Assembly (NCBI GenBank): GCA_024679065.1 | Contig: JAGIQG010000009.1 | Span: forward strand, 95,666,001 to 95,730,000 | Length of the DNA stretch: 64,000 bases | Direction: 5' to 3' | Source of the DNA: Sphyrna mokarran | Lineage: Eukaryota | Shown: piece by piece, positions 6,521 to 59,231 of the stretch | Numbering within the stretch: position 1 is the stretch's first letter | How the letters are laid out: the number at the start of each line of letters is the position of its first letter | Program-made: the position numbers and the translations under genes | The notes under the pieces: generated by a model | Databases searched by the model: none | The model's input: the letters and a program-made list of their open reading frames with translations, nothing else | What the model was told of the DNA's origin: nothing

Positions 6521-6540
6521 ATGTTTTAACATTCAATGAA

Positions 6541-6665
6541 ACACCAGCTAAGCCCATCAGAGCCCCAAACACCAGCTAAGCCCATCAGAGCCCCAAACAC
6601 CAGCTAAGCCCATCAGAGCCCCAAACACCAGCTAAGCCCATCAGAGCCCCAAACACCAGCTAAAC
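6541..6665. repeat. 28-nt minisatellite downstream of gene A (4+ units)
   Basis: ACACCAGCTAAGCCCATCAGAGCCCCAA tandem. Confidence 0.9.
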
Positions 6666-6995: not shown

Positions 6996-7100
6996 CTTTC
7001 TTGTTGTAGATGACGACCCCCACAATGATGAGAGCGATGAGCACGAGGACCCCGACCACAATCCCGACAGTAACAGCAACCTGGGAGCGAGACTTTGGTT
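6996..7100 (-). CDS. MHC class I gene A, exon 5 (transmembrane)
   Basis: EPKSRSQVAVTVGIVVGVLVLIALIIVGVVIYNKK; 105 nt; no exon 6/7 homologue downstream (deleted), read-through frame ends at 6874. Confidence 0.9.
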
Positions 7101-11424: not shown

Positions 11425-12402
11425 AAGAATAACATAGAACATTACAGCACAGAACAGGCCCTTCGGCCTTCGATGTTGCTCCGACCAATATAAAAAGCAA
11501 TGCCCCTCCAAACTAAACCATTCCCTTCTCTTCCATATACTTATCAACTAACCTCTTAAACGCCACCAAACTTGGCGCATCTACAACTGCTGCAGGCAGG
11601 GCATTCCACTCCCGAACCACCCTTTGGGTAAAGAACCTACCTCTGATATCCGTCCTATAACTATCACCCCTTAATTTAAAGCTGTGTCCCCTCGTGCTAG
11701 CTTTCTCCATCCTAGGAAAAAGGCTATCACTGTCCACCCTATCTAAACCTCTAATCATCTTATATGTTTCGATCAGGTCCCCTCTTAGCCTCCTCCTTTC
11801 TAACGAAAACAACCTCAAATCCCTCAGCCTCTCCTCATAAGACCTGCCCTCCATACCAGGCAACATCCTGGTAAACCTCCTCTGTACCCTCTCCAATGCC
11901 TCCACATCATTCTTATAATGTGGGGACCAGAACTGCACACAACACTCCAAGTGCGGCCGCACTAGAGTTTTGTACAGTTGCAACATGACGTTGCGGCTCC
12001 GAAATTCAATCCCTCTACCAATAAAAGCCAAGACTCCATATGCCTTCTTAACAACCTTCTCGACCTGACTGCCTACTTTCAGGGATCTATGCACATACAC
12101 ACCAAGATCCCTCTGTTCATCTAGACTACTAAGAATCCTACCATTTGCCCTATACTCTACACATTTATTATTTCTGCCATAGTGCATTACCTCACACTTT
12201 TCCACATTAAACTCCATTTGCCACCTCTCGGCCCAGCTCTGCAACTTGTCCAAGTCCCTCTGCAAACTATAACACCCCTCTTCACTATCTACCACTCCAC
12301 CGACTTTAGTGTCATCTGCAAATTTACTAATGCATCCTTCAATACTCTCATCCAGATCATTTATAAAAATTACAAACAGCAGGGGCCCCAAAACAGACCC
12401 CT
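11425..12402 (-). mobile_element. Young 5'-truncated CR1 LINE in gene A intron 4
   Basis: Open RT C-terminal frame (QGSVLGP, KFADD, LVRPHLE), CR1 3' tail; absent at the homologous site in gene C. Confidence 0.9.
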
Positions 12403-12768
12403 GAATCTCACGATACACATCGTCATGTCCTACTGTAATGCCCAATAATGCAATGGGTCCTATATCCCATTTATTTCCCTGTCATACTGTAATATCCCAA
12501 GGTACACCAGGCAGTATCTATCCTGTAATATTCCACAACATATTAGATCCTGTTGCACTGTAATACAGCAAAATACAGTGGAGTATGTTTCATATCAAAT
12601 CCACAGACACACAACTATTTCCCTCTAATGGCAGTGATACATAACACATTGAAGGTTAATATTTATTTCCCTCTCTCTATATCCTGCACTGACAGCTCAG
12701 CACTGACCCTTCCTCCTATGATCCTGCTCTGAGGCTGGGTCCTCTCTAACTGTGAGAAACAGTCTTAC

Positions 12769-13032
12769 CATAAATCACCACCAGTGTCTCCTTCATCCCG
12801 CTGTGTTCCACCCGACAGGAATACTCGGCCCGGTTCTCTGGATCAAACTCAATCCATTTCCGGATCTGGTAGGTGATGTCATGATTGGGTAAGATCCCAG
12901 TGGACAGAGTCTCACCAATCACCACTCCGTCTCTGCACAGATTCACCTCGACGGCTTGAGGGTAAAACCCGGTGACGGCACAGGACAGCCGGTTAGAATC
13001 ACCCAGACGGGTAAAGGACACGATGGGGGCAA
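12769..13032 (-). CDS. MHC class I gene A, exon 4 (alpha3 Ig C1 domain)
   Basis: VAPIVSFTRLGDSNRLSCAVTGFYP...PNHDITYQI...YSCRVEHSGM; 264 nt, AG/GT. Confidence 0.95.
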
Positions 13033-13100
13033 CTGAGAGAGAAAGAAAGAGGAGTCAGTACAGGAACCTCGAGATAGAGAGTCCCGGCATCACCCCCTTC

Positions 13101-13946
13101 GCCGACTCTCACTTCCCCCCCTCACTCGCCGACTCTCACTTCCCCCCCTCACTCGCCGACTCTCACTTCCCCCCTCCTCGCGACTCTCACTTCCCCCCCT
13201 CACTCGCCGACTCTCACTTCCCCCCCTCACTCGCCGACTCTCACTTCCCCCCTCACTCGCCGACTCTCACTTCCCCCCCTCACTCGCCGACTCTCACTTC
13301 CCCCCTCACTCGCCGACTCTCACTTCCCCCCCTCACGCCGACTCTCACTTCCCCCCCTCACTCGCCGACTCTCACTTCCCCCTCACTCGCCGACTCTCAC
13401 TTCCCCCCTCACTCGCCGACTCTCACTTCCCCCCTCACTCGCCGACTCTCACTTCCCCCCTCACTCGCGACTCTCACTTCCCCCTCACTCGCCGACTCTC
13501 ACTTCCCCCCCTCACTCGCCGACTCTCACTTCCCCCCCTCACTCGCCGACTCTCACTTCCCCCCCTACTCGCCGACTCTCACTTCCCCCCCTCACTCGCC
13601 GACTCTCACTTCCCCCCCTCACTCGCCGACTCTCACTTCCCCCCTCACTCGCCGACTCTCACTTCCCCCCTCACTCGCCGACTCTCACTTCCCCCCCTCA
13701 CTCGCCGACTCTCACTTCCCCCCTCACTCGCCGACTCTCACTCCCCCCTCACTCGCCGACTCTCACTTCCCCCCCTCACTCGCCGACTCTCACTTCCCCC
13801 CCTCACTCGCCGACTCTCACTTCCCCCCCTCACTCGCCGACTCCCCCCTCACTCGCCGACTCTCACTTCCCCCCCTCACTCGCCGACTCTCACTTCCCCC
13901 CCTCACTCGCCGACTCTCACTTCCCCCCCTCACTCGCCGACTCTCA
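13101..13946. repeat. Intron 3 minisatellite of gene A (~26-27 nt, about 30 units)
   Basis: Unit CACTCGCCGACTCTCACTTC(n)T; on the minus strand it contains the exon 3 donor junction. Confidence 0.95.
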
Positions 13947-14213
13947 GCTGCTGTTGTCCATATTCCAAGTATATCTTCAGCCACTCAATGCACTCCTGCT
14001 CCAGGTAAAACTTCCACTGTTGATTATCCCAGGCCCTGATCTGCTGCCACCATGTCATGGTGTTCTCACTCCACGGTACCGGTGTTAGCCATTCCTGCTC
14101 ATCTTTGTCAAATGTCATGAAATCTTGCCCATCCCAACCAAACTGTGAGAAGCCGCTCGTTGTCCCATCATCAGCCATTTCGCAGCCAGTTTTCAACTGG
14201 AAGAAGTGGATCC
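13938..14213 (-). CDS. MHC class I gene A, exon 3 (alpha2 domain)
   Basis: GIHFFQLKTGCEMADDG...GWDGQDF...YLEQECIEWLKIYLEYG; 276 nt, both Cys present; donor is non-canonical G|GCGAGT. Confidence 0.95.
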
Positions 14214-14344
14214 CTGTAAATCAGGCACGTATGACCAAAGAGGCTCAGTTCGACTGAGTGACCCCCCCACCACACGTTAATCAGACATCATCTCGGAAGC
14301 CAGTGTTAATGGACCCCTGGACCACAATATAAGACTCCTTACCA

Positions 14345-14615
14345 TGTCATAGAACCCCTACAATGCAGAAGGAGGCCATTCAGCCCATCGAGTCTGCACC
14401 AACTACAACCCCACCCTATTCCTGTACTTTGACACTAAGGGGCAATTTTAGCATGGCCATCAACCTAGACCGCACATTTTTGGACTGTGGGAGGAAACGG
14501 AGCAGCCGGAGGAAACCCATGCAGACACTGGTAAAATGTACTAACTCCACACCGACTTGAGGCCAGAATTGAACCCTGGCGCTGTGAGGCAGTAGTTCTA
14601 ACCCCTGTGCTACCC
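14345..14615 (-). mobile_element. HE1-like SINE
   Basis: GGAGGAAAC..GGAAACCC core, CATAGAACCCTACA tail. Confidence 0.7.
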
Positions 14616-15469
14616 CATGTAAATGATCCGCAAACCCAACCTATATTTGAAGGACTCCCCCTGAACCATGTCTATTAGTTAAAGGAAACCCAAAGCAGCA
14701 GCTGTAAATTTACAGGTCTCCAACTAAGATTTAATTTGTCTGCAACTCCATACTACTAGACTCCCAATCCAAATATTATAAGGAGACCTTCAACCACCAA
14801 ATTCCCAATCATTATCGTAGTCATTTATTCATTCCTTTGAGTTCACGCTGGTTCTCTTTATTGCAAAATGATCAGTGCCATTTCCCCCCGCTCTATCCTC
14901 ACAGTGCTAACTATCTATTTCTCTGATGTCCTATTCAACTTCCTTTTGAAGTCATTGATCTTCCCTGCATCCGTTGCCCCCACAAGCCAAGAATCCCAGA
15001 TGTTTGCCAAGCACTTTGTAGAGAGGATTTTCCTGCATCTCTTTCCCAAAACCTGAAATCTGCAGTTAGCACTGCTGCCTCACAGTGTCTGGGTTTGATT
15101 CCGGCCTTGGGTCACTGTCTGCATGGAGTTTGTTCTCTTCGTGTTCCAAGTGAGTTTCCTCCAGGTGTTCTGGTTTCCTCCCACAGTCAGAAAGACGTGT
15201 TGGTTAGGTGCATTGGCCATTTGGCCCTTTGAATCTGTGCTGACCACAATCTGAGGAGAGACACCACATCTGAGAAAGAAGGAAGACCACAGCCAGAATG
15301 CCAGACCGGACCAAAGAACCAAACTACACAGACAACTACTAACACCAGCGCAGAGATAAAAGCCAATATCTGTTTGGGTACTTGTCAGTCATGCAAAGTT
15401 GAGTCAAGTTCTTGTATTGTACTTGAATTCTAGTATTTTCTGTAAGATAGCTTACTGTTGGTCAGGTGG

Positions 15470-15920
15470 ATGATTATTGTCCAACAAGGGGCATACACGC
15501 GGTGGGTTGTGCAAGGTCTGCTCTTGGATTTTTCAAGAGTAACCTAGTGCTTCACATCATTAGTGTATGCTTAAACTGGACCATTTGATGGGCAACACGA
15601 CAGCTCAGTGACTATCACTGTTTGCTGTGCAGATACATGGATTTGGGCCTGTGTCTGTGGGAGTTAGGGGATTCTCCCCGTGCTTGCGTGAGTTTTCTCC
15701 AGGTGCTTCGGTTTCCTTCCACACCCCAAAGATGTGCTCTTAGGCTGATTGGTGTAACAAATTGACCCTAAATTGTCTCCCCTCAATCTGGTTTCCAATG
15801 TGGATTTCCAGAAGCACAGACAAGGGTCAGGGGTGGAGGAAGAAACTCACAATGTTAAAATAGTGGCGTGGACTCGTTGAGCTGAAAGACCTGTTTCCTG
15901 TGCTCTATTGTTCTTTGATT
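15470..15920 (+). mobile_element. CR1 3'UTR-only copy (hairpin + SINE body + CR1 tail)
   Basis: Homologous to 22860-23315 and 45780-46220. Confidence 0.75.
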
Positions 15921-16469
15921 GTGTGAGTTTAAATATAGATTGTTTGTACTAATAAGACATCTTCTCTCCCACATTTGCTTTTGATGGAAGCAAACAGTCC
16001 CCCACAGCAAATATGTTTTTGGTGGGGAGGAGGCACATAAAACATGACGGGAATAGTCCATCACCTTCTTACCTACTCCTGACTGAATCCCCATAATACA
16101 GGGGCTGCCTACCCTTGTCTTCTGAGACCCTTAAATGGCCAATTAAATTTAAAACATCCCTCTGTTTCATCTCACCGTAGAGTGAGAAAACAAAGGAGAA
16201 AAGTACATATGATGGCAAAATTGGTTAATATCATACTGTCCACTTTGGAAACTCCAAACTTTTCAGGGTGGTGGGTATGTGGGATCGGCTGCCATCAGTG
16301 GTGGTGGAGGCGGATTCAATAGGGTCTTTTAAGAGACTTTTGGATGAGTACATGGGACTTGGTAAGATTGAGGATTATAGGTAAGCCTCGTAGATAGAGA
16401 TATGTTCGGCACAAGTTGTGGGTCGAAGGGTCTGTTTGTGCTGTAGTTTTTCTATATTCTATATTCTAT

Positions 16470-17140
16470 TCGTATTGTCCATCGTATAAGGGTTAAAACA
16501 AACTGATTTTACAACAGTGGTGCCCAACGTGGGGCATCGATAAGAAGTAACTTTGTTACTCCGATATCGAACCCTGCAGACTTTATATTGAATGGTTATT
16601 TAAAACTCAGAGCCAGCAGCTGTAAACTCCTTGTTGGACAATAACTGCTTTCGGGAAAGTGTTTATTGTGCATGTGTATTGTTACTAACAAGAAGGATAG
16701 GATAACTCTGTAGGTTTGTATTAGAACGACTGGAATATAGCATAAAGCCGTGCCCACAGTCCAATCGCTTCCCTACCCCTTGTCGTTAAGTATAGAATGG
16801 CAGGAAATAATATAGAGACAGAGAAGTGTCCCATATAGGGAAAAAAGAAACAGAGAATATATTAAAAGTGTGGTCCCTATGGGAGAATCTTGTGCTAATA
16901 CTGAGATGGGACTGGAATCCCTAGGGCAGATTTTGAAGTAAGGTGAGTCAAGGGGAAGAGTGAACTCTATATCAACCATGAGGCAAGGCTCAAAACCAAC
17001 TCTGGAGTGGAGAGAAGTGTTCATCGTACCCTTGATACTAACTTACTTAGAGGAACTGATTGGTAAATTAGTAGGCACTATACCCTTTCAGACATTTCTT
17101 GGTCTCCTGGGACTGTACCTAGAGAGAAACACACAGAATT
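16470..17140 (+). mobile_element. LTR retroelement/ERV fragment with tRNA-Lys PBS
   Basis: ..ACAACA g TGGTGCCCAACGTGGGGC (16518-16535), 17/18 match to the Lys1,2 PBS. Confidence 0.6.
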
Positions 17141-17535
17141 CACGGGTAGAGGTGGGGACATCAGGGTGGCGGCACGGGCTCGTTGGGCCGAAGAGCCTGT
17201 TTCCCGTGCTGTTTTTTTGTTCTTTGAGCCATATTTATCCTCTCCCTCAGTCTATCAAACAGGTACACAAGTGTGGCAACTAAGGGATTTTCACAGTAAC
17301 TTTGTTGCAGTGTTAATGTAAGTCTTACTTGTGACACAAATAAATAAACTTAAAGTTTAAATTAGCCCTTATACAATCAGCTAATTAGGAAGAATATTTC
17401 TTTGTATTTAAAGGGTGTTCCTCATTGCTGCCACTCCATGCTTGAGGTGATGAATAAATTTTTCCCCTGACGCTGGTTCTCAGATCCCATTCTGCTTCCT
17501 CTCAAAGGACAGATGATGGGAGTGCAGAGACTCAC

Positions 17536-17796
17536 CATTTGACTGGTTGGTCCGGGACATGAAGCTCTGAATGTAGAATTTGAAATGTTTCTCCTTCTCC
17601 TGTGCAAGCACTGTCTTCCGCATCCAGAAATTGGGCCTCTTGTTCTCCATATACCACTGCCAATGGCCGACCAACTCCTTCCAGTTGCTGTCATATGTAA
17701 AAAACTGCACATCATCTACAAAACCGACAATCACAAACTCCGGGAGACCAGAGACCGGTGTCATAACAGTGGCCAAATACTGGAGAGAGTGAGAAC
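17536..17796 (-). CDS. MHC class I gene A, exon 2 (alpha1 domain)
   Basis: GSHSLQYLATVMTPVSGLPEFVIVGFVDDVQF...MSRTNQSNG; 261 nt, AG/GT boundaries, phase 1, N86 sequon NQS. Confidence 0.95.
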
Positions 17797-19214
17797 CTGA
17801 AACAGAGAGAGAGAGAGAGAGAAAAAGAGACATCAGGGTGTGAACCCCAAAACACCAACACCCAGAGAGAGATACATCAGGGTGTGAACCCCAAAACACC
17901 AACACCCAGAGGCAGACAACGGGGTGTGAACTCCAAACCCAACACCCAGAGAGGAAACATATCTAACAGAATCACCACACACCTACGCCAACAAAGACTG
18001 AGGCTTCCGATGCTCCCTCCTGTCTCCTCAAAACCTGTCATCTCCTACCCCCATCGCTCACTCGACCCTGATCAGGGATTCTGTGTCCCCACTGGAGCCC
18101 TTCAAATCTCCTACAGAAACAGGAGAAATATGAACAGAGAGAAGCTGGGAACAACTTTGGACTGTTTATTTAAAGGAGATGACCAGATGGGTATCCATAG
18201 AGATACAGCGTTAGGAATGGGTTAACAGTCACCTTCAATTTAAGTTCTAAATTGGATATTAATCATTTAGGAGAAGTCACTGGGACAGATAAAGAGATTA
18301 CAGGTGACACTGGGTGTTGGGGTGTGTGTGCGGAGTTGTAAAAGAGAATAGGGGATTGGAGTGAGTTACTGACCTTTTTGATTCCATTTTGATGTTTTAA
18401 GTTTCTGTTCCACTTTGCTTTTTGTTTTGGGCTGTTCCCTTCCTTTTGTGGGCTGCCCCTTTTAATTTGTCCCTCAGTTGAGTTGATTTGGTTGGCCAGA
18501 ACGTCACTGGATATATAAAGAGGTTGTCGGTGACTGTGTGCGTGCGTGTGAAAGAGAATTAAGTGAGTTTGTGAAGAAGCTGGACTTGCATCATTTACTG
18601 GACTGCAGTTGAAAAGCTGAACAGCCAGCAAAATGAAGGAGGCAGCAAACTGTGATAGTTAAAAGAGCCTACTCTGCATCAGGCTCAGAACTGGAGGAGC
18701 AGCATTGGGGTAGGGGTCTGCAGTGAAGGATAGGCACAGGAGCTGATTGAACACAGACCCTGTGTGCCATGCTCCTGAGATAAATACCTGAGTGAGGTTC
18801 GTGACTGGGAGAAAGATCAGCCCCGGCAACATCTGTATAAGATGGAGAAACAAAGCAACATCAGCGGGAGTAACACAGGATCAACTAATGCAGAAGGAAG
18901 CATGTAAGATCCTAAGTGTTTCCTCTGGTTTTGCCCCTCAGTCCAAAAATATGTGTGGGCTAGGTTGTTCAACCTTGCTAAATTGTCCCTTTAGTGTTTG
19001 GGGATTAGCTTGGTAAATATGTGGAGTTGCAGCATAGGGCCTGGGTGGGCTTGTTGTTGGTGCAGGCTTGATGGGCTGAATGACCTCCATCTGCACCGTA
19101 GGGAATCGATGATCACACTCGTGTTTAAATACTTTCGATATAACTAAGTCAGAGATTGAATTCTTTGTGTGGAACAAAGTTTGAGATTTGGTGCACTAAA
19201 GTTTGTGTTGTAGA

Positions 19215-21020: not shown

Positions 21021-22187
21021 GTGTTGCTCCCACAGTGCAAAGATGTGCAGAATAGGTGGATTGGACAGGATAAATTGCCTAAATTTAAGTCCAAAGTCCA
21101 AAGATGTATAGGTCAGGGTGATTAGTGGGGTAAATGTGTCACATTATAGGGACATGGCCTATGTAAGGTGCTCTGTTACAGAGCAGGTGTAGACTGGATG
21201 GGCCAAATGGTCTCCTTTAGCACTGTAGTGTTTCTATGAACTGGGAGGAGACAGCCTCAGGCAAGCATGCATATTGTACTTATGTGTCTTCTTCACTGTA
21301 TGCACATTGAGCTTAATTCCAGCTGAATCTACAAGCTCATTCTTGGAAGGGCAAAACCCTTTGACCTATTCTCTCTCTCTCTCACGTCTTTCATCAGAGC
21401 AAAGAGCTGACAACTGCAGCCAATGGTTGCTCACCAGGAGAGGTTTGAATGACCCTCTTATATGCTGCATAACTTCTATGGTCCTGTGGACTTCAGAAGT
21501 CATTTCCCCACCCCCTCTATCAGTGCAGTCGCTGCCACCATGGGGTGTGTGAGTTTGCGCTTAGATTCAATGTCATAACCTGGTGAGAACACCATGCATG
21601 CCTGACCAGCTGTCGAATGTTGTAACTGACAAGGCCATGAAGCTTGGAAGGCTAAGACAATACTAACTCCCAGGCTGATGACAAGCTTCTGGAGTTGTCA
21701 GTGAGACAACCGATACTGGAGTTTTGTTGTGAGGTGCATTTAAAGTTGGAGAAGTCTACCCAAGCCATGAACGCTGCCATTTCCCCCTCTTCTCCCTTTA
21801 GAGATTGCCAACTCTTGGAGATCCATGTCCAGCAAGTGAATACTGGAGAATTGTGCAGGCAATATGCCATTGGCTAGACTCTCAGCTCGAGGGAGTAGTG
21901 GTAAAGAGAGAGGTGGGCGAGACACAAAATTCACCATCAGGTGATGGTGAATACCTCAACTGGGAGGAATGAGTGTGTTGCAGCACATCTGCCATTGACT
22001 TTAGCCATCAAAGTGACAGGTTTCTATATCGGTTCAGGAACCTCTCAGCATGATGGCTCATTCCATGCCTCAAGTAGTCAGAGCGCAGCTGTCACAGAAG
22101 AGCAACGTCAACAGACTGCTCTGCTATCTCTTTAAACTGTGGGCAAAGTCCCACTTTTAAGTCATCTAAATATTGAGGGATAATCCT

Positions 22188-22484
22188 CCAGTACCCAGCC
22201 TGGCATTGCCTCTCTCACAGCCCATCACTCACTAACCCAGGGCTAATTCTCCAGTACCCAGCCTGGCATTGCCTCTCTCACACCCCATCACCCACTGACC
22301 CAGGGCTAATACTCCAGTACCCAGCCTGGCATTGCCTCTCTCACACCCCATCACCCACTGACCCAGGGTTAATACTCCAGTACTCAGCCTGGCATTGCCT
22401 CTCTCACACCCCATCACCCACTGACCCAGGGTTAATACTCCAGTACCCAGCCTGGCATTGCCCCTCTCACACCCCATCACTCAC
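22188..22484. repeat. 63-nt minisatellite, intron 1 of gene A (~5 units)
   Basis: CCAGTACCCAGCCTGGCATTGCC... recurring about every 63 nt. Confidence 0.9.
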
Positions 22485-22533
22485 CTGCAGACACTTCTCC
22501 ACATAGCAGGACCAGCACTATCAGTCCAGTCAT
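22485..22533 (-). CDS. MHC class I gene A, exon 1 (signal peptide)
   Basis: MTGLIVLVLLCGEVSA-G, 49 nt, donor G|GTGAGT; an in-frame upstream ATG at 22548 adds MESNP. Confidence 0.9.
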
Positions 22534-22859: not shown

Positions 22860-24000
22860 GAACAAAGAACAAAACAGCACGGGAAACAGGCCCTTCGGCC
22901 CAACGAGCCCGCACCACCACCCCGATGTTCCCACCCCCACCCGCAATCCCTGTCCATGTTTATAGATCTATGGATTAAAAACCAAATTTGAGACAATTTA
23001 GGGAGAATTTGTTTTGCCAATTAGCCTAAGAGCACATCTTTGGGATGTGGGAGGAAACCAGAGTGCCTGGAGAAAACCCACGCAAGCACGGGGAGAATGC
23101 GCAAACTCCCACAGACACAGACCCAAATCCATGTAGCTGCATAGCACAGCGATAGTCACTAAACTGTCATGTTGCCCATCAAATGGTCCAGGTCAAGCGT
23201 ACACTAACGACGTGAAGCACTAGGATACCCTCGAAAAAGATTCAAGAGCAGTCCTCTCACGACCCATCGCGTGTATGCCCCTCGTTAGACAACAAGGTGG
23301 ACCAAAGCACCTGTAGGATAAAAACAAGTACATCAATATCATCATCTATTTACACACTTCCCAGGGACTCCCAAGGCTCATGATCCCTAGTTTAAATCAG
23401 TTTTCTATACCCCTCCATTCCCATTCTGTTCATGTGCCCATCTAAGTATTTCTTAAATAACTCCAGAGTACCTGTCTCCACCACTTTACTTGGCAGCGCA
23501 TTCCATACCCCCACCACCCTCTGTGTGAAAAACCTCCCTCTAGCATCCGAATTATACCTTACCCTCCTCACCCTAAGCCCGTAACCCCTCGTGCTATTTG
23601 AGTCCATCCTAGGAAAAAGCTTAACCCTGTTTACTCTATCTATCCCCTTCATAATCTTGTACACCTCTATTAGATCTCCTCTAAGGCTACATCTTTCTAA
23701 GGAATACAGTCCCAATTTGCCTAATCTCTTCTCGTAACTCAGACCTTCCATACCAGGCAGCATCCTGGTAAATCTCCTCTGCACTCTCTCCAGAGTCTCC
23801 ATGTCCTTCCGGTAGTAGGGCGACCAGAACTGGACGCAGTATTCCAAATGAGGTCTAACCAACGTTTTATACAACTGCAACATTAAAGGCCAGCTCTTGT
23901 ACTCAATACCCTTCCCTACAAAGGCTAACATACTATATGCTTGCTTCACAACCTTCTCCACTTGCTCTGCCACCTTCAGAGACTTGTTCACCTGCACCCC
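22860..24000 (-). mobile_element. 5'-truncated CR1 LINE with SINE-containing 3'UTR
   Basis: ORF 23392-23997 is an RT C-terminus; 3'UTR nearly identical to 38940-39398. Confidence 0.9.
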
Positions 24001-25164
24001 CGGGTACTAGTCACAAATACGGATTACACGAACACTGCAAAGAAGTTACTACGAAATTTCCCTGGTTGCCTTAGACTAGTGCCTGTTGGGTCAATTCACC
24101 TAACTAGCACGTCTTTCAGAAGATAGGAGGAAACCGAAGCACCCAGAGGAAATCCACACAGATATGGGGAGAACGTGCGGACTCCACACAATGACCCAAG
24201 CAGAGAATCAAATGTGGACATTGTGAGGCAGCAGTGCTAACCAATGTGCCATCGTGCTGCTCATAACTGAAATTGGGTGAGTTTTTTTCTGAGAGAAGAG
24301 CACATTTATGTACTTATTAATTCAGATGTAATGAAATCGGACAATTTTGTTGGTGGACTCAGTGAATGCACTGTGTCTTTGAGTTGAAATGTGGCTTCCT
24401 GTTTCACATAGTTAGAAAGCACTTAAACTACTTGTATGTGGCAGAGGACACAGTTTTGGGGCTACTCAACTTTGCCAGCAAGGATGGAGAAGCTCAACAC
24501 TTTTTTTTTAAAAAAAACAAGACATTTGAGCACTCTACAAGGAGCACAGAAATTCCTCCAGTTGAAATCATGGAGAGGGAATGTGCAAAGTTCACATAGT
24601 CATCCAAACTCAGATTGCACCCAGGTCCCTGGTGCTGTGAGGCAGCAATGTGCCACTGCACTCCGCCTTTAAAGCATGTCCAGAAAATGTTTACGTTAAA
24701 TGATTGGGATTTATTTTGTGAGGAAAACTTGAGCAGGTTGGGGATTTATTCATTGGAGTTAGAACAATGAGAGGTAATCTCACAGGAATGGGTTTGATTC
24801 TGATAGGGATTGATCGGGTAGTGACTGAGTTTTTTCAGGAACAAAACATGAGGGCAAAGCCTCAGGATAAGGGGTGATTCATTTAAGATAAGAGAAATTC
24901 CTTCACTCAAAGTGTTGTGAGCCTTTCATTCTCTATCCCAGAGAATTGTGGAAGATATTAAAGATGGACAGATTCGTGGTGTCTCAGGGAATGGAGGAGT
25001 ACAGAGAGTAGGACTGAAATTGACATGAGGCAGAAGATCATCTATGATGGTGTTGAATGATGGGAGTCTCACAAGAATGAACGGTCTACTCTTGCTGTTT
25101 TTTCTTCACTGACTGAGGATTAATATCTAACCCAAGCACTCCCCCCACCCCTCACACCCATCAC

Positions 25165-31875: not shown

Positions 31876-33220
31876 TAAAATTTAAAAACAGAAGAAATAA
31901 TGGAGCAAGTTTGAAGGGCCGCATAGCCTACTCTTGCTTCTGGTTTCTACATGCAGAGGAGATTGTTTATTGTGGACAGGACTGGAAAATGTTCACTGTG
32001 AGGAAAGAATGGACAGGCTGGAATAGGATTCTGTAGAATAGAGGCTGAGGGGAAATTTAATTGAGGTGGATGTAATTATGAGGAACCATGATAAATAGAG
32101 ATGACACATTTATCTTAGCAGAGGGTCAAAAACCAGGGGGACAGATTTAAAATAGTTAGTAGAAAGATCAGAGGGGGAAATGAGGAAGGAGTTTTTAAAC
32201 CCAGAGGGTGGTAGGGACCTGGACTCACTTTCTGAAAGGATGGTAGAGGCAGAAACTCTCACCATATTGAATCAATTCTTGGACTTCAAGTTGAAGAGCT
32301 GTGATCTACAGAGCTACAGACTGAGTACAGGAAAGTGAGATTAGGCTGGAGAGTTCTTCATTAACAGGAAGGAGTATAATGGGCTGAAAGGCCTCACTCT
32401 CAATCATAAATTTTCTATCATTCAACATTGCAACACCAGTTAAACACATCAGACCCCAAACACCAGTTTTTCACATCGGACCCCAAACACCAGCTAAACC
32501 CATCAGAGCCCCAAACACCAGCTAAACTCATCAAAACCCCAAATGCCAGCTGAACCCTTAAGTCCCACTCCAAACCCCAAACATCCAGTGAAAGTACAGG
32601 CCCTTCATGCGTCACCAAATCCCTACAGCACAGAAGAAGGCCATTCAGCCCATCGAGCCTGATCCAAAAATGATCCCAACCAGGGCCTATTCCTGTAACC
32701 CCATGTATTGATATTGCTAATGCCCCTCACAGTAAGGGGTAACTTAGCATAACCAAGCAACATAATCTGTACATCTCTGGAGTGTGGGAGGAAACCGGAG
32801 CACCCGGAGAAACCCACGCAGACACGAGAAGAATGTGCAAACTCCACACGGACAAAACAAGACAAATATTAAATCCTGTGGGAGAGGCACAGCCTAGTGA
32901 CCAACTTCAGGGAAATCTCGTTGAATTACGATTCCTTAAAAAAACTGAGCAGCTGAGAGGAGGCTGTTTAGGGTGAGATGTTTCAAGATCTTTCGACACC
33001 TAAACACCCACAATTTCTCCACCCTCAGGCTGTACAGGAGCAGCCGTCTCCAGAAGGCCAGTCTCAAAGCTCAGTGTTGGATTGGATGAGCTGCTCTTTA
33101 CTGACTATACAGCAAGAGACAGACATTGAGCTCACATCCCACCCACCAGATTGCTAAATCCAGCAGGAATATCCCAGTTAGAAGGATCAGCTCCCAATAT
33201 TTATCAACACAGTTCATACC

Positions 33221-33267
33221 TCAGGAGTGCATGGTGGAGCTGGAACAGGAATCCCCACCATTACAAG
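33221..33267 (-). CDS. MHC class I gene B, exon 7 (cytoplasmic, stop)
   Basis: TCNGGDSCSSSTMHS*, aligns with gene C exon 7. Confidence 0.7.
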
Positions 33268-33459
33268 CTGTTAAAAGAACAGGTTTTAAAAACTGTTCAT
33301 TATTAAAGAGACAGAGACTATGCACGAGATATAGATATAGAGAGAAAGAGACATACACACATACATACACATACCATTTGGTTGAGTGTATTTGACACAG
33401 AATGAACAATGATTCACGTATTACACAGAGATACAGATGATGTTTGATGGTCAGCTTAC

Positions 33460-33492
33460 TGTTTGCAGGATTGTAGTCATTCTTTCCTCTCT
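33460..33492 (-). CDS. MHC class I gene B, exon 6 (cytoplasmic)
   Basis: ERGKNDYNPAN, 33 nt, TTTTACAG/GTAAG boundaries. Confidence 0.75.
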
Positions 33493-33924
33493 CTGTAAAA
33501 TAAGGAATATTCAGTGAGAGATGAGATTGAGAGAAAAATCAAAGACAGAGGCTGGAACTATTACTCGCACTGAGCCGCTATGACAGAATTCTGAACCTTC
33601 ACTCCCAACACGACCTAAGACCCTTACTGGTAACCTTCACTAAGACCTTAGACCCTCACCTGAGACTCTCACTCCCACACTCACCTGAGCCCCTCACTAA
33701 TACCTTGAGCTCCTCATCCAAACTGAGACCCTTCCCACAACTCCCAGACACACCCCCTTTATCATGAGTCCCTTACCCTCCCTTTCCCAACCCTGGGGCT
33801 CTTCTACCCACTCTGTGAACCCCCCACACCAATCTGAGACCCACAGTGACCCCACCCTGCAATACTTTACCAGAATCCCTCCAACCCCCAGTGAGGGAGC
33901 TGCTATTTTCCCTCCAATTCCTAC

Positions 33925-34029
33925 CTTTCTTGTTGTAGATGACGACAGTCACAATGATGAGAGCGATGAGCACGAGGACCCCGACCACAATCCCGACAGT
34001 AACAGCAGCCTGAGAGCGAGACTTTGGTT
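33925..34029 (-). CDS. MHC class I gene B, exon 5 (transmembrane)
   Basis: EPKSRSQAAVTVGIVVGVLVLIALIIVTVVIYNKK; 105 nt. Confidence 0.8.
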
Positions 34030-34077
34030 CTGTGAGAGAGAGACTGAGTGAATCAGAAAGTGGAAAAAGTGAGACTC

Positions 34078-34109
<32 letters not shown>

Positions 34110-34134
34110 GCAGAGAATCTGAGAGTGAATCACA

Positions 34135-34440
34135 GCCTCCCTACAGTACGGACGGAGGCCATTCAGCCCATCAAATCTGCACCGACAACAATCCCATCAA
34201 TGCCCTATCCCTGTAACATGTAATTAACCTGCAAACCACTCCTCTGATACTAGGAGACAATTTTGCACGGCCAATCCACAGAACCAGCAGATTTCTGAAC
34301 TGTGGGAAAAAAAACAGAAACTCAGATGAAACCCACTCAGGCATGGGGAGAACATGCAAACTCCATACTGTCAGTGATCAAGCTGGGAATCGAACCTGTG
34401 GCCCTGGCACTGTGAGGCAGCTGAGATAACTCCTGTGTCG
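34135..34440 (-). mobile_element. HE1-like SINE
   Basis: Head, core and tail on the minus strand. Confidence 0.65.
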
Positions 34441-35446
34441 CTCATAAAAGGGGAAAAAAAAGAATGAGACAGAATGAATCCAACAGAGAGAGAAAATCAG
34501 GAAACACAGGATATACAACACAGAAACCAGCCATTCGGCCCATCCAGTTGATTCTGGTGTTTATGTTCCACTTAAGCCTCCTCCCATCTTTCCACATCTA
34601 AAACAATCACGTTAACTCTATTCCCTTTTCACTCATTTGCTTGTCTATCTTCCCCTCCTGTTCTGTTCAGCCACTCCCTGTGGTTGTGAGCTCCACACTC
34701 TATGGCAAGTTGTTTACTTTGAGTTAGACCTGATGACCCACCAACAGAGGATAAGCTATGTGTCCTGCATGCAGGCTTGAGCGAGCAGTGGAAAACCGGT
34801 TACAAGCTATTTATTGGCTTGGTCGAGCAATGTGATGAGTTCCCCATTGGCTGGGCGTTACAGAACTTTCTGGAAAGTTAGAACAGTTTTGGGGGTAAAG
34901 GCACAAGTCAGCTGTCTGCTTCCAATCATAACTCTAGAGATCAACCATTGCAAGAAGTGTACCTTGCAGAACACCTTCAGAGGAAGACAGTGAGGACATT
35001 TTGCTCTAAACCAGGTCATATCTGTTTTCAGTTGAAGGATTAGAATATCTGTTTGCAATCAAGGAATTAGAATTAATGTTGAGTTAAAGACTTAATATCC
35101 ATAAAAGGGTTAAAATGTTGCAACTGTTTGAGCTTGGTACCTAAAGTGGTAAATAGATTATTAAGAGGAATAGACTTGACTTTGTCCTACTAAACTAAAA
35201 TGTTTGCAAAGAGTTGAATTAGTAGCCAAATAATAGGGGCACATTTCATATTAAATCCTTGGACACACAATTACTGCCTTCTAATGGTTGCTGCATGATA
35301 AATAAAGTATTGAAGATTAATATTTATTTTCCTCTCTCTGTATCCTGGGCTTCAGGTTGTCCTGGGCTGACAGCTCAGCACTGACCCTCCCTCCTGTGAT
35401 CCTGCTCTGAGGCTGGGTCCTCTCTAACAGTGAGAAACAGTCTTGC

Positions 35447-35710
35447 CGTAAATCACCACCACTGTCTCCTTCATCCCACTGTGTTCCACCCGACAGGAAT
35501 ACTCGGCCTGATCCTCTGGATCAAACTCCATCCACTTCTGGATCTGGTAGGTGCTGTCGTGATTGGGTAAGATCCCAGTGGACAGAGTCTCACCAATCAC
35601 CACTCCGTCTCCGCATAGATTCACCTCGATGGCTTGAGGGTAAAATCCGGTGACGGCACAGGACAGCCAGTTAGAATCACCCAGACGGGTAAAGGACACG
35701 ACGGGGGCAA
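35447..35710 (-). CDS. MHC class I gene B, exon 4 (alpha3)
   Basis: Ig C1 LSCAVTGFYP...YSCRVEHSGM; 264 nt; donor G|GCAAGA. Confidence 0.85.
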
Positions 35711-35785
35711 CTGAGAGAGAAAGAAAGAGGAGTTAGTTCAGGAACTTTGAGGTAGAGAGTCCCAGGCATCTCATACCTCACTTAC

Positions 35786-36058
35786 CAACTCTCAGTTCTC
35801 TCTGTCCGTACTCCAGATACTTCTTCAGCCACTCAATACACTCTCCTTCAAGGTAATTTTTCCATCTCTCGCTGTTGGCTACGTCCCTGTCCAAATTGTT
35901 TTTGATGATCTGTCCCCATGTGACTGGGGACACCCACACCATGTGATCCTTGTCAAAGCTGATAAAATCTTGCCCATCCCACCCGAACTGGTTGAATCCA
36001 CTCGTGGTCCCATCATCCCTCAGGTCACAGCCAGTCATCGTCTGGTAGACATGGATCC
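35786..36058 (-). CDS. MHC class I gene B, exon 3 (alpha2)
   Basis: GIHVYQTMTGCDLRDDG...YLEGECIEWLKKYLEYGQRELRV; 273 nt. Confidence 0.85.
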
Positions 36059-36379
36059 CTGTGGATCAGAAACACAAACAGCCAATCGGAGACAGTGTCA
36101 CTTGGGAGCACCCCACACACACAGCCAATCAATGCCAACTACACTGGGGGGAGCCACATTGACTGCCAATCACAGCCAGTTACACTGACTAAGCCCATAT
36201 GCAATACACACATCCAATCAGAACCAGCCTCACTTGGAAATCATCCATCACAGCCAATCATATTTATTGTCACATCTCCAATCGCAGCCAATCAGCCTTT
36301 GGCTCCCGGTTCCTGATCCACTCTGGGTTTCTCCCCATTCCCAACTTGATCCCAGAGTTGTGGGAGAGTGAGCGCTCAC

Positions 36380-36635
36380 CTCCTGACTGGTTGGCCCGAG
36401 ACATGAAGAGCGGAATATTGGCTTTGGAATACCGTTCCTGCTCCAAGCATCTTCTTCCTCTCCCAGGCTGCCGGACCCTCGCTCTCCACCATCCACTTCT
36501 CCCGGGGGATCAGCTCCCTCCGATCACTGTTGTACACAACAAACTGGACACCGTCCACGTAACCGACAGCCACAAACTCTGGGAAACCGGGGACCGGGGT
36601 CATTCCTGTGAGGAAATACCGGAGAGAGTGAGAGC
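36380..36635 (-). CDS. MHC class I gene B, exon 2 (alpha1, frameshifted)
   Basis: [32 protein letters not shown]...AAWERKKML then a frame change to EQERYSKANIPLFMSRANQSG. Confidence 0.8.
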
Positions 36636-37466
36636 CTGAAATAGAGAGAGAGAGAGAATTCAGGATATACAACCTAAAAACACTAACACACAGATATCAG
36701 GGTTTGAACCCTTAACCATCAGTACCCACATAAAGAGGGACATCAGGGTACAAACCCATTAACACTCGACAGGCCATGGTGTTTGGGACTGTGAATTACG
36801 GAAGGATGCAGTTTCACACTGTGACAAACAGGACAGTGGGCACTATTACAATCTGCTCTATGTTTGGGGTGGGTATGGAGAAAGCTGGCAGATTGTGTCT
36901 CCTCTTGATGACGGAATCATCATAGTTGGCGCCAAGGTTACACCTTGAGCAATGCCATGATACTTTGAGGCAACGTTTGCCCTGAGAATAAGTGTTGGTG
37001 ATGTAGAGTTCATTCAGATAGCAAGGCTTCAGAAGGTGCTTAGAAGCTGAATATAACTCACTGACTCGCACAACAGAGGTTTTGATGCAGTGATGTGCAC
37101 CCACAATACAGTTCCCCTGAGAGTCCTCAGCATAGAAGTCCCATGCATTTGGTCAAATATAATTATCAATGACCTTGCCCACACCTTGATGACTGAGGCA
37201 TAATGATCATGATCACTATCTGTCCTGACAGATTGTTGAAGTCACTTAGGCAAAAAATACTGCTGTCATTCAGAATCTTCCTCAGGACATCAGCTAAGGA
37301 ATCATAGAAATTCTGGAGTCTCCAGCCAGATCTGATTTCTCCTCCCTCCCCACTTTAATTGTGCATTGCTGCTAGAGTCTCTAACTAGGTCTGTGCTATT
37401 CCTTTACACACACTTTCTCTCTATTCATGCATTGCTGCTGGAGCCTTTTATTGGGTCTGATTATAT

Positions 37467-37790
37467 GGGTAGCATGGTGGCAGAATGGTTAGCACTGCTG
37501 TCTCCTAGCACCAGGGAACAAAGTTCAATTCTGATCTCGGGTAACTGTCTGTGTGGGGTTTGTATGTTCTCCCCGTGTCCGCATGGGTTTCCTCCAGGTT
37601 CTCCAGTTTCTTCCCACATTCAAAAGATATGCGGGCTATGGTTGATTGACCATGCTAAATTGTCCCTTAGTGTCATGATGATTAGTAGGATAAATACATG
37701 GGGTTACAGGAATAGTGCCCAGGTAGGACTGTTCTTGTTACAGATTCGATGGGCTAAATAACGTTCTTTTGCACTGCAGAGATTCTATCA
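37467..37790 (+). mobile_element. HE1-like SINE
   Basis: GGTAGCATGGTGGCAGAATGGTTAGCAC head, core, tail. Confidence 0.7.
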
Positions 37791-38937
37791 CCCTATATTT
37801 CTGCTGCTTTCTCTCTCTCTAATCATGCACTGTTGCTGAAGCCTTTAACCAGTCTCTGCTATTCATCTATACTCACTCTGTTTCTTAGTTGCTGCCTGCT
37901 GTCTTTAGCAGGAACATCCTCACCAAAATGGTTGTGGAAATCTGAAATCCTCTTTCCCACAAGAAGCTGTAGCTGTTGTGGGTCAATTGCGGCTTTCAAA
38001 ATTGAGATGGATTTTTGAGGGGTTGCAGAAAATGGAATTTAGGTTATTCCCCTCACATTCCTGTATTCCTTCATTCCCTCCCTCTATCTCCCCAATCTCC
38101 AATTGCATGCTCTGCTCTCAGTTCCCTCACATCGCAGTTTCCCTCCTTTAAGAAACGCAGTGTCCAGCTTGGCATTACCCCTTTCACACCCGATCACTCA
38201 CTGACCCAGGATTAATGCAGTAAGAAGTCTCTTAACTCCAGATAAAGTCCAACAGGTTTATTTGGTAGCAAAAAACCACTAGCTTTTGGAGCACAGCTCC
38301 TTTGTCAGGTGGGTGGGAGTTCTGTTCACAAACAAGGCATACAAAGACACAAACTCAATTTACAAAATAATGATTGGAATGCGAGTCTTTACAGCTAATC
38401 AAGTCTTAAAGGTGCAGACAATGTGAGTGGAGAGAGCATTGAGCACAGGTTAACGAGATGTGTATTGTCTCCAGACAGGACAGTTTGTGAGATTTTGCAA
38501 ATCCAGATATGTCATGGTAATTACAGATAGTGTGACATGAGCCCAAGATCCCGGTTGAGGCCATTCTTGTGTGTGGAACTTGGCTATCAGTCTCTATTCA
38601 GCGACTCTGCTCTGTCATGTGTCGTGAAGGCCGCCTTGGAGAATGCTTACCCGAAGGTCAGAGGCCGAATGCCTGTGACCACTGAGTGTTCCCCAACAGG
38701 AACACTTTTGCCTGGTGATTGCTGAGTGGTGTTCACACGGATGCCATTATCTCACACAAGAACACTATCTGCCAGGTACACGGTACATACTCTTGCAACC
38801 CGGCCAAAGTCTTCTACCTGATACACTGCAGGAAAGAATATTCTGAGTCATGATGGTACTCTGGGGAGACCATGCAGATGCTACGACAACACATATATGA
38901 ACACCGCTCGACAATCACCAGGCAAGAGTGGGCATTC

Positions 38938-39398
38938 AAAGAACAAAGAACAAAACAGCACGGGAAACAGGCCCTTCAGCCCAATGAGCCCACCCCGTCA
39001 CCCCAATGTTCCCACCTCTACCCGCGATCCCTGTCCATGTTTATAGATCTATGGATTAAAAACCAAATTTGAGACAATTTAGGGAGAATTTGTTTTGCCA
39101 ATTAGCCTAAGAGCACATCTTTGGGATGTGGGAGGAAACCGGAGCACCCGGAGAAAACCCACGCAAGCACGGGGAGAATGCGCAAACTCCCACAGACACA
39201 GGCCCAAATCCATGTATCTGCACAGCACAGCGATAGTCACTGAGCTGTCGTGTTGCCCATCAAATGGTCCAGGTCAAGCGTACACTAACGACGTGAAGCA
39301 CTAGGATACTCTCGAAAAAAATCCAAGAGCAGCCCTCTCACGACCCATCGCGTGTATGCCCCTTGTTAGACAACAAGGTGGATCAAAGCACCTGTAGG
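38938..39398 (-). mobile_element. CR1 3'UTR-only copy nested in a Penelope derivative
   Basis: Near-identical to 22860-23315, with (GAACAAA)n tail. Confidence 0.85.
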
Positions 39399-39750
39399 CC
39401 TCTGATCTTTGGGTAAGTTTCTCCAAGCGGCCTTCATGACACACGACGGTGCAGAGTCGCTGAACAGAGACTGATAGCCAAGTTCCCCACACCTGAGGAC
39501 GGCTTCAGCCGGGATCTTGGGTTCATGCCACACTATCTGTAACCCACGTGACTTGTCTAGATTTGCAAAATCTCACTAACTGTCCTGTCTGGAGACAATA
39601 CCATCTTTTTAACCTGTGCTTAACCCTCACTCCACTCACATTGTCTGTACCTTTAAGATTTGATTAACTGAAAAGACTCACATTCTGACCATTATTTTGT
39701 AAATTCAGTTTGTGTCTTTATGTGCCCGGTTTGTGAACAAAACTCCCACT

Positions 39751-39786
39751 CACCTGACGAAGGAGCAACGCTCTGAAAGCTAGTGG
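39751..39786 (+). ncRNA. Minimal hammerhead ribozyme motif (Penelope-associated)
   Basis: cac CTGACGA a ggagc aac gctct GAAA GC TA gtg. Confidence 0.65.
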
Positions 39787-39874
39787 CGTTTGCCACCAAA
39801 TAAACCTGTTGGACTTTAACCTGGTGTTGTGAGACTTCTTACTGTGTATACCCCAGTCCAGCACTGGCATTTTC

Positions 39875-40187
39875 ACACCAGGGTTAATGCCCCAGTACCT
39901 AGCCTGGCATTGCCCCACTCACACCCCATCACTCACTGACCCAGGGTTAATGCCCCAATACCTAGCCTGGCGTTGCCTCTCTCACACCCCGTCACTCACT
40001 GACCCAGGGTTAATGCCCCAGTATCTAGCCTGGCATTGCCCCTGTCACACCCCATCACTCACTGACCCAGGGTTAATGCCCCAGTACCTAGCCTGGCATT
40101 GCCCCTGTCACACCCCATCACTCATTGACGCAGGTTTAATGCCCCAGTACCCAGCCTGGCATTGCCCCTTCACACTCCATCACTCAC
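39875..40187. repeat. 63-nt minisatellite, intron 1 of gene B (~5 units, one more at ~38155-38218)
   Basis: Same unit as in gene A; 21-aa periodicity in the ORF track. Confidence 0.9.
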
Positions 40188-40236
40188 CTGCAGACACCTC
40201 TCCACACAGAAGGACCAGCACTATCAGTCCAATCAT
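40188..40236 (-). CDS. MHC class I gene B, exon 1 (signal peptide)
   Basis: (MREAA)MIGLIVLVLLCGEVSA-G, donor G|GTGAGT; upstream in-frame ATG at 40251. Confidence 0.8.
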
Positions 40237-48880: not shown

Positions 48881-48929
48881 ATGATTGGACTGATAGTGCT
48901 GGTCCTTCTGTGTGTAATGGTGTCTATAG
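48881..48929 (+). CDS. MHC class I gene C, exon 1 (signal peptide)
   Basis: MIGLIVLVLLCVMVSI-G, donor G|GTGAAT. Confidence 0.9.
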
Positions 48930-49027
48930 GTGAATGATGGGGTGTGAGAGGGGCAATGCCAGGCTGAAACTTACAGCAAAATCTCCAACCAGTGTCATGT
49001 CCTGAATTCTCTCTCTCTCTATTTCAG

Positions 49028-49288
49028 GCTCTCACTCTCTCCGGTATTTCCTCACGGGAATGACTTCGATCCCGGGTCTCCCGGAGTTTGTGGCTGTCGG
49101 TTATGTGGACGGTGTCCAGTTTGTTGTGTACGACAGTGATCGGAAGGAGCTGATCCCCCGGGAGCAGTGGATGGTGGAGAGCGAGGGTCCGGCAGCCTGG
49201 GCGAGGAAGAAGATCCTCGCACAGGAGGCGGAGATACATTTCAAAGATAATATAGAGATCCTGATGTATCGAACCAACCAATCGGGAG
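49028..49288 (+). CDS. MHC class I gene C, exon 2 (alpha1)
   Basis: [32 protein letters not shown]...[10 protein letters not shown]; 261 nt, AG/GT. Confidence 0.95.
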
Positions 49289-49779
49289 GTGAGTCTTCAC
49301 TTTGCCAGCACCCAGCCTCTTCCTCAGGATGCAGGACATCTGGGTCAGAACGGGACAAACTGAGAGTCGATCAGGATCTGGGACTAGGGGCTGTTTAACT
49401 GATGTTGTGCATGAGCTCTGCAAGGTCTGTTGGTCTCCTGAATCTGATTGTGGAGCCTGATTTTAAACGGGCATGAAAACTTGGTTAAGTTGGGCGTGAG
49501 GCCATTATCGCGATCCGTGCAAGTGCCCACTTTACCAAGGCCTGAAAATGGCTGTAGTCCTAATCGTGCCCGAACCGGACACAAGGATGATTTAAATAGA
49601 TTTGCATGCATTTGAATTAAATTAATGAACTGCCCTCCCAGCTTTAACAGCATTTCCCCCTTAACCATTGCGTTGGTTCGGCACGAAACAAACCTGCTCA
49701 GTAAAGGTCTGTTTTGGACGCTGAAATTCTGAAGAGATTTGTTTAGAGATTTCAATGTCTCCCTGACACAGATCGGGAT

Positions 49780-52700: not shown

Positions 52701-52860
52701 GTCCACCGCCACTCTGCGGGTGATCCGTGGGAGGGATGGTGGAGTTGTGCAGTAGGTAGTGATCAGTCTGAGTGGGTCTGGGTGGATAAGGAGGACAGTT
52801 ATATTGTGGGGGATGGGATGGGGTGAGGCAATGTCTGAATGGGGGGGAGGGGGGTGGTAC
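49780..52860. other. Low-quality assembly segment with N gaps in gene C intron 2
   Basis: N runs at 50060-50191 and 50375-50563, near-random G-rich then AT-only tracts, noisy internal duplicates. Confidence 0.85.
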
Positions 52861-53328
52861 TGATCCCGTTTTTTGCTCCCAGGCTGCTTTATCTACTTTT
52901 TGCGGTCTGGGCGCGATGTGGCAGTAGCACGTTTTTTGATTTTTTGTTTCTCATTGTGTGTGCGCAGTTCAAAGCTCTGATCAGACCAGCAGCGTTTTGG
53001 GTGCGATAAGCCCCACCCACTCACTCACCATTTTTGTTCCCAGGTTTAGTGCGTGTTGGGGTGCCTGAGAACGGATTTCCAGGTTAGATCTGAATTGTGC
53101 TCGGATTTAACACTTAGAATGAAAATGGTGAAACCGGGCCTGTGTGTGTGTGTGTTTGGTGACTTTGCCTTGAGTTGGATTGGGCGAGTTGGCTGTGTGT
53201 GTGTTTGTGTGTGTGTGTGTGTGGTGGCTGGATCTCCAGTGGGAACAGATCTCTTTGGGTGGGTTTATGGTGAGTGCGGTTTTTACTGGGACTGGCCCTG
53301 ATTGGCAGATTATCTTTGTAATCCACAG

Positions 53329-53601
53329 GGATCCACACATTTCAGCTGATAACCGGCTGTGACCTGAGTGATGATGGAAATACGACTGGATTCAACAATT
53401 ATGGGTGGGATGGACAAGATTTTATCAGTTTTGATAAGGATCACATGGTGTGGGTGACTCCCTTCCCTTGGGGAAACATCACCAAAAAAAAGTGGGAGGG
53501 CAGTACAGTCATTACGCAGCGATGGAAACGTTACCTGGAGGTGGAGTGTATCGAGTGGCTGAGAAAATACCTGGAGTACGGACAGAAATTACTGAGAGTC
53601 G
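53329..53601 (+). CDS. MHC class I gene C, exon 3 (alpha2)
   Basis: GIHTFQLITGCDLSDDG...GNITKKKWEG...YLEVECIEWLRKYLEYGQKLLRV; 273 nt (absent from the ORF track). Confidence 0.95.

Positions 53602-59198: not shown

Positions 59199-59231
<33 letters not shown>

Follow-up and report, generated by a model that had tools for sequence, protein, structure and literature searches.

How can an intron still be removed when its 5' splice site has been multiplied in tandem and every copy, the working one included, reads GC in place of GT? This question is raised by gene A, one of three MHC class I heavy-chain genes (A, B, and C) found in the 64-kb stretch of Sphyrna mokarran DNA that was analysed here as a whole and is called the window. 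The gene models are listed below, with positions in the window, strand, and basis.

22485-22533, minus strand: gene A exon 1, coding part (leader); gene model
17536-17796, minus strand: gene A exon 2 (alpha1); gene model, Pfam, and the contig of sequencing run X1
13938-14213, minus strand: gene A exon 3 (alpha2), 276 nt; gene model, Pfam, and X1 contig
12769-13032, minus strand: gene A exon 4 (alpha3, C1-set); gene model and Pfam
6996-7100, minus strand: gene A transmembrane (TM) exon; gene model, without the later cytoplasmic exons of B and C
33220-40236, minus strand: gene B, a class I paralog whose alpha1 has lost 5 nt, with a frameshift, and whose exon 4 is followed by a GC donor
48881-60157, plus strand: gene C, a class I paralog whose reading frame stays open across 7 coding exons

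The leader, alpha1/alpha2 MHC_I, C1-set alpha3, and TM exons are in phase, in the manner of an MHC class I heavy chain. PF00129 scored above its cut-off in 5/5 of the alpha1/alpha2 pieces submitted, and PF07654 in the single alpha3 piece (1/1). The frame of gene A is open from the leader through the TM exon (318 codons). The nearest named relatives of the window genes are class I proteins of Mustelus asterias, and the middle unit of XP_078075253.1 from this species is identical to gene A at 76/86 residues of alpha1 and 82/91 of alpha2 (88% and 90%). This 1069-aa model joins three class I genes, one B-like, one A-like, and a third, with B preceding A as in the window; it is likely an annotation fusion that hides the counterpart of gene A. 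The Mustelus counterpart retains cytoplasmic exons and a normal tail, whereas gene A lacks them. Compared with gene C, about 760 nt are absent from gene A (59697-60456 in C; at 6775 in A), including both cytoplasmic exons and the stop. Reading through the TM exon of gene A gives a new 41-aa tail and a stop, with an AATAAA at 6327 that matches the one of gene C at 61322.

A tree of 43 rows, made by a quick search with SH-aLRT support only, placed genes A, B, and C in starred clades with nurse-shark O19479 and horn-shark O19480 (20 rows with support 95; 21 rows with support 99), apart from the polymorphic, classical-type Triakis allele series. Within a starred clade of this quick tree, gene A paired with the Mustelus unit and next with proteins of Stegostoma and Hemiscyllium. 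Our first guess, the UEA lineage, was dropped on this grouping. We provisionally take the O19479 lineage to be UBA and hence term the window genes UBA-like; the UBA genes form an expanded family that derives from UAA.

Several other features of the locus were observed in passing. The alpha1 deletion of gene B lies within 36380-36635, and Mustelus has intact B-like proteins; the GC donor after exon 4 of gene B (ACG/GCAAGA, 35446-35447; a slash marks the exon-intron cut here and below) is a second and independent one. Gene B is likely a pseudogene or an assembly error. Another minisatellite, with a 63-bp unit in about 4.9 copies, begins at the leader donor of genes A and B (22176-22484 and 39878-40187), its later units bearing donor-like TCA/GTGRGT words; gene C has less than one such unit, in an intron 1 of 98 nt. 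A 27-28-bp repeat lies 3' of each gene (6539-6663, 32432-32555, and 60584-61083) in about 4.5, 4.5, and 17.9 copies, a paralog-specific expansion. Between B and C, a pair of long open frames lying side by side (284 and 625 aa; 43021-45753) resembles by eye a recently inserted LINE element, and shorter pieces similar to them lie at 11513-12481 and 23392-24006.

A splice donor repeated in tandem

The third introns of the three genes were parsed into the following features.

13099-13946, minus strand: gene A intron-3 minisatellite (Tandem Repeats Finder: period 27, 32.5 copies, 94% matches)
13033-13108, minus strand: terminal partial unit and unique 3' part of gene A intron 3, with polypyrimidine tract and AG acceptor; 75/76 nt as in gene C
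53593-53894, plus strand: gene C intron-3 minisatellite (Tandem Repeats Finder: period 26, 11.5 copies), 11 full units and a terminal partial one
35711-35785, minus strand: gene B intron 3, 75 nt, with one donor (TTG/GTAAGT) and no array; gene model

An earlier note on this DNA had described the repeat unit as the end of the alpha2 exon plus its donor, and the parse bears this out: the 27-bp unit of gene A consists of the final 9 nt of exon 3 (-9 to -1) and the initial 18 nt of intron 3 (+1 to +18), with the first unit straddling the border. The splice junctions given there also hold, namely the cut between 13938 and 13937 and the acceptor at 13032 in gene A, and 53601 and 53961 in gene C. The gene A array comprises 32 full units and the terminal partial one, giving 33 donor positions where about 30 had been counted. 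Position +2 is C in 33/33 of them in the assembly sequence, the first and terminal units included, so that the claim of an all-GC array stood and its count did not. The exact 9-mer TCG/GCGAGT is present in 29/33 copies. The deviants include the shortened copies mentioned in the note (two lacking one G and one lacking two bases 3' of the donor) and the terminal TCG/GCGAAG; the latter, presented earlier as one more GC copy, is a degraded donor with A at +5 and G at +6, as is the terminal unit of gene C. In the gene C array, for which about 12 GT copies had been reported, +2 is T in 12/12 positions and T(C or T)G/GTGAGT occurs in 11/12. The gene model likewise agrees that gene B is free of an array, and its 75-nt intron 3 probably resembles the state before the array arose.

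Matches to the unit core numbered 38 in the window and 0 in 100 shuffles; thus, the array is not a product of chance. Across 835 aligned bases, the 32 full units of gene A contain 0 substitutions, and their 66 CpG sites are all undecayed against a background CpG observed/expected ratio of 0.305. They differ by losses only (29 gap columns, with no unit of the 32 exceeding 27), part of which may be long-read errors. The gene C units carry 6 substitutions in 282 aligned bases. The mean G4Hunter score was 1.33 for the A array and 1.29 for the C array. ViennaRNA minimum-energy folds of five array pieces nonetheless contained a quadruplex in none, while the positive control folded.

Donor strength and the X1 transcript

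Two short features lie at the first unit.

13932-13940, minus strand: working donor TCG/GCGAGT, cut between 13938 and 13937; 6/9 consensus matches, predicted U1 duplex -4.5 kcal/mol
13930-13932, minus strand: in-frame TGA met on any read-through past the first donor; equivalent stop in B and C

In the assembly sequence, intron 3 of gene A has GC at +1/+2 and an AG acceptor with a polypyrimidine tract, the make-up of a GC-AG U2-type intron. The strong consensus that is typical, if not obligatory, of GC donors is absent, the exon side being TCG with no AG at -2/-1. Predicted U1 pairing was -4.5 kcal/mol for this donor, compared with -8.9 for the GT form in gene C and -6.9 for CAG/GCAAGT. Each gene A unit also contains two GT words with predicted U1 pairing of -5.1 and -4.6 kcal/mol, neither of which is used in the X1 contig. 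As far as published accounts go, about 15-18% of GT>GC changes yield any normal transcript, with better U1 complementarity among those that do (10.1101/479493), and non-leaky +2T>C variants typically show two or more further departures from consensus (PMC12805630). The gene A donor has two or more other such departures and therefore resembles the non-leaky variants. Given this weakness and the low share of tolerated changes, the GC donor may need some helper.

Reading past the first donor gives RVGE-stop in A and C and RVGK-stop in the array-less B. The earlier note had reported RVGE-TGA, which is correct for A and C; it is not a product of the array, since the stop occurs in all three genes, B included, and thus predates the repeat. 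The note's further statement that use of a downstream copy truncates the protein after alpha2 also agrees with our models, in which any later donor leads to a stop after 197 aa. From this stop to the exon 4/TM junction downstream there would be 283 nt, which makes decay of the transcript likelier than a secreted protein. Skipping of exon 3 (276 nt), an outcome absent from the earlier note, would be in frame, and no sign of it was seen in the unbranched X1 contig over exons 2-3.

Of 17 sequencing runs listed, none recorded as RNA, four (X1, X2, X14, and X15) were compared over 13900-17800 and form the basis of what follows, the runs with small shares (X3-X11) being left aside. Further joints, deviating letters, and loose ends in this comparison derive from interspersed repeats of intron 2 and were disregarded. 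X1 is RNA-like and is labelled RNA by guess, and contigs of this kind omit rare forms. A single 653-nt contig of X1, at depth 59.5, matched gene A with 0 mismatches over 13938-14212 and 17535-17799 (540/540 aligned letters). It joins exons 2 and 3, and the unique intron bins are at zero or near-zero depth. Gene A is transcribed and spliced in the X1 sample, where the earlier note had named an absence of transcription as a possible refutation of its reading.

The match of this contig ends exactly at 13938, with 39 letters beyond it unplaced. Exon 4 of gene A differs from that of B and C at position 9 and has 31-mers in common with them from position 10; a path private to gene A should therefore end at exon-4 position 39. 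Among six joins modelled, only that of the first donor to exon 4 predicts both the end at 13938 and the 39 letters. The other donors would end the contig at 13934 (the GT at +5), 13921 (the GT at +18), or 13911 (the second GC donor), and had exon 3 been joined to the TM exon, 52 letters would remain unplaced. The depths of the edge bins (42.3, 23.2, 15.0, and 58.9) equal those expected from the X1 contig alone (42.24, 23.16, 14.99, and 58.92), so no X1 contig lies on the array start (13900-13937), a result that describes the main form in one sample. From the 39-letter overhang we infer that exon 4 is the splice partner of 13938. Apparently, the most upstream GC donor is the main one used and the intron is removed there, assuming that the X1 animal carries the same GC allele. 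The functioning GC-AG intron proposed earlier is thus borne out by a contig that leaves at 13938 with 39 letters, as modelled. Decay would deplete stop-bearing forms in X1, and minor use of downstream donors may occur.

The idea that the array serves to make a secreted alpha1-alpha2 protein was considered and rejected, because the stop is ancestral, decay is predicted, and the first donor is the one used in X1.

How the array may have come to read GC

The terminal unit and the 3' part of intron 3 are identical between genes A and C at 75/76 positions, the sole difference being C or T at +2. Between the same two genes, identity is 95.8% in exon 4 and 67% in exon 3. Among A, B, and C, the alpha3 exons are 94-96% identical and the alpha2 exons 67-77%, and the jump coincides with the position of the array at the border of exon 3 and intron 3. 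That the 3' part of intron 3 and exon 4 are near-identical next to so divergent an exon 3 points to conversion or recombination among paralogs, which would have set a C-type intron 3 and alpha3 behind the old, distinct alpha1/alpha2 of gene A. Without its array, the intron is identical to that of gene B at 68/75 aligned bases, and the gene B donor is flanked by two TGAGA words. GT is likely the ancestral state of the donor, being found in B and C and being canonical. Among switches counted in mammals, GT>GC numbered 298 and the reverse 40 (PMC2490688). The earlier note had proposed that a splice-site variant was homogenised across the array, and the unit statistics agree with this: 0 substitutions in 835 bases and 66 undecayed CpG sites in A, compared with 6/282 in C, suggest that the gene A array was likely overwritten recently by one GC-bearing unit.

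We assign a probability of about 0.65 to the reading that the array arose by neutral slippage, was recently homogenised to GC, and is spliced from its first donor. The history would be as follows. A duplication over the exon/intron border, probably between the TGAGA words, would have seeded the array in the ancestor of the A and C introns. Gene A would share its intron 3 and alpha3 exon with a C-like paralog or have received them from one. The T>C change could then have begun in one of the silent copies downstream and been spread by unit turnover, with the working position converted last, an order that is reconstructed. If the first donor were GC and the copies behind it GT, the second donor would likely win and the transcript would run into the in-frame stop. 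Thus, the sweep most plausibly took the silent copies first and the working donor last, and a functional gene with GC at this donor likely requires GC throughout the array. In the present gene, exons 2 and 3 are spliced and the transcript exits at 13938 in one run, with exon 4 as the presumed partner. Stray use of later copies would give a premature stop and decay, and not a regulated product.

Choice of the first copy has a model in intron 7 of human F7, whose 37-bp VNTR also repeats a donor. There, only the most upstream of identical donors was reported to be used, with no difference between 1 and 12 units; the next copy was used once the first was inactivated, and mutation of the G triplets had no effect (Borensztajn et al., 2006; PMC1557585). 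A perfect and much stronger downstream copy took 70-90% of splicing in the same account (PMC1557585). By analogy, the spliceosome likely settles on the copy farthest upstream in gene A, where equal GC copies would leave the first as the winner. Position alone, however, only partly explains why the two similarly pairing GT words in each unit are bypassed, which weighs against this reading. Relaxed selection may have helped, given the missing cytoplasmic exons of gene A.

A bolder version, which we consider rather unlikely, is that the minisatellite itself drove the switch from GT to GC: its silent copies would have served as a mutation reservoir, turnover would have swept GC to the working donor, and the G-runs would prop up the weak donor. 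If this were true, A and C would constitute a natural paired experiment on the origin of non-canonical donors.

It is also conceivable, if unlikely, that the array compensates the weak donor. The G5-G7 run of each unit would bind hnRNP F/H-type enhancers, the GC donor would depend on the array to work at all, and selection would have favoured the growth to 32 units. The apparent use of a donor with 6/9 matches and -4.5 kcal/mol, compared with -8.9 for the GT form in C, is consistent with this, as is the roughly threefold higher unit number of gene A than of gene C. G-rich elements downstream of donors are reported to promote splicing and to be bound by HNRNPF/H (PMC3606033), and GC donors are described as more dependent on auxiliary elements (PMC3167603). 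On the other hand, the former source presents such G-rich intronic elements as uncommon in fish and as gained mostly in mammals, sharks not being named there (PMC3606033), and in F7 neither the G-triplet mutation nor the unit number had an effect (PMC1557585). The gene C array carries GT, and hence the array did not arise for the sake of GC; moreover, a GT donor of gene B (ACA/GTAAGC) has an equal predicted pairing of -4.5 kcal/mol.

The earlier note had further suggested that copy number tunes the ratio of full-length to alpha1-alpha2-only or decay-bound transcripts through the downstream donors. The means are present, in that there are 29 identical donors and any later one would stop the protein after 197 aa. 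Human 6-16 and CBS are reported to use two downstream copies beside the true donor (PMC1557585), and GC donors to be enriched in alternative splicing (PMC2490688). The data nevertheless argue against tuning: the single unbranched contig over exons 2-3 exits at the first donor with no X1 contig on 13900-13937, the stop is ancestral and present in B, and F7 shows no effect of copy number between 1 and 12 units (PMC1557585). We therefore regard this part of the note as unsupported and very unlikely.

Behind it we rank the view that gene A is a decaying, still transcribed duplicate under relaxed selection, in which the GC donor would be one lesion of several and inefficient splicing perhaps without consequence. 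Gene A indeed lacks the roughly 760 nt holding both cytoplasmic exons and the stop, and its neighbour B has a frameshift and a GC donor of its own. The decay view is made highly improbable by the open frame from leader to TM, the spliced X1 contig at depth 59.5 that is identical to the window, the 88% and 90% identity of alpha1 and alpha2 to the Mustelus counterpart, and the TM read-through that offers a 41-aa tail, a stop, and the conserved AATAAA at 6327.

Least probable of all is that the GC is an assembly error, or that the X1 contig came from an animal with a GT allele so that no GC donor is really used: base 13936 rests on the assembly (X2 depth starts at 14027, and the raw DNA runs X14 and X15 are below 1-fold there), a stretch inside intron 2 of gene C (49780-52900) is garbled, G-rich then AT-rich with N gaps at 50060-50191 and 50375-50563, and looks low-quality, and the losses in gene A units resemble long-read deletions, but C stands at 33/33 positions with 0 other substitutions, T stands at 12/12 in near-identical gene C contexts of the same assembly, and the X1 contig equals gene A at 540/540 aligned letters.

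The preferred reading, a neutral array homogenised to GC with its first donor in use, would show concretely how a canonical donor can give way to a non-canonical one while avoiding a lethal mixed intermediate. Gene A with GC in every copy and gene C with GT in every copy would also form a matched pair, in a non-mammalian vertebrate, for asking whether position or a G-run enhancer governs the choice of the first donor. In practice, gene predictors may miss or mis-model gene A, whose cytoplasmic tail is altered as well.

Comparison with known repeats and donors

As a group, the window genes resemble the multicopy nonclassical class I genes of sharks (UBA-like; O19479, O19480, and the Mustelus cluster), since they likewise form a multicopy cluster and are grouped there in the tree. 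A donor array reading GC throughout was not found in the literature searched, which misses most subscription papers. Metagenome scans gave 67 pattern hits with a Mustelus class I protein, none confirmed as a related locus, and 0 related loci with the unit pattern.

Among GC-AG U2 introns and leaky GT>GC donors, the likeness to gene A lies in GC at +1/+2, an AG acceptor, and a spliced product (10.1101/479493, PMC12805630, PMC3167603, PMC2490688). Working GC donors as described there are usually near consensus elsewhere, whereas the gene A donor has a TCG exon side and sits in an array. The amphioxus 'mirage' minisatellites also duplicate an exon-intron boundary in tandem, undergo concerted evolution, and apparently leave splicing unharmed; in the published account they exclude the boundary units from homogenisation, in contrast to gene A, where both end units share the GC (PMC3087553).

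The closest parallels are human. The F7 repeat has a border-spanning first unit, an identical donor repeated downstream, G-containing units, and use of the most upstream donor, all as in gene A; it differs in having 5-9 units and GT donors, where gene A has 33 GC donor positions and a paralog with a twin array of GT donors alone. The donor-spanning minisatellites of human 6-16 (IFI6), CBS IVS13, LMNB2, and PDGF are described with the same architecture in 10-26 units (PMC1557585), and the existence and length alleles of the CBS VNTR are on record (PMC2630376). Two of them, 6-16 and CBS, also use two downstream copies, and none of the four is described in that source as GC (PMC1557585). The gene A array is likely a mostly harmless variant of the repeat type known from these human genes. 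The architecture of a donor-spanning array is already known; the novelty is that all copies of an array have changed to GC, a weak donor that is apparently still functional.
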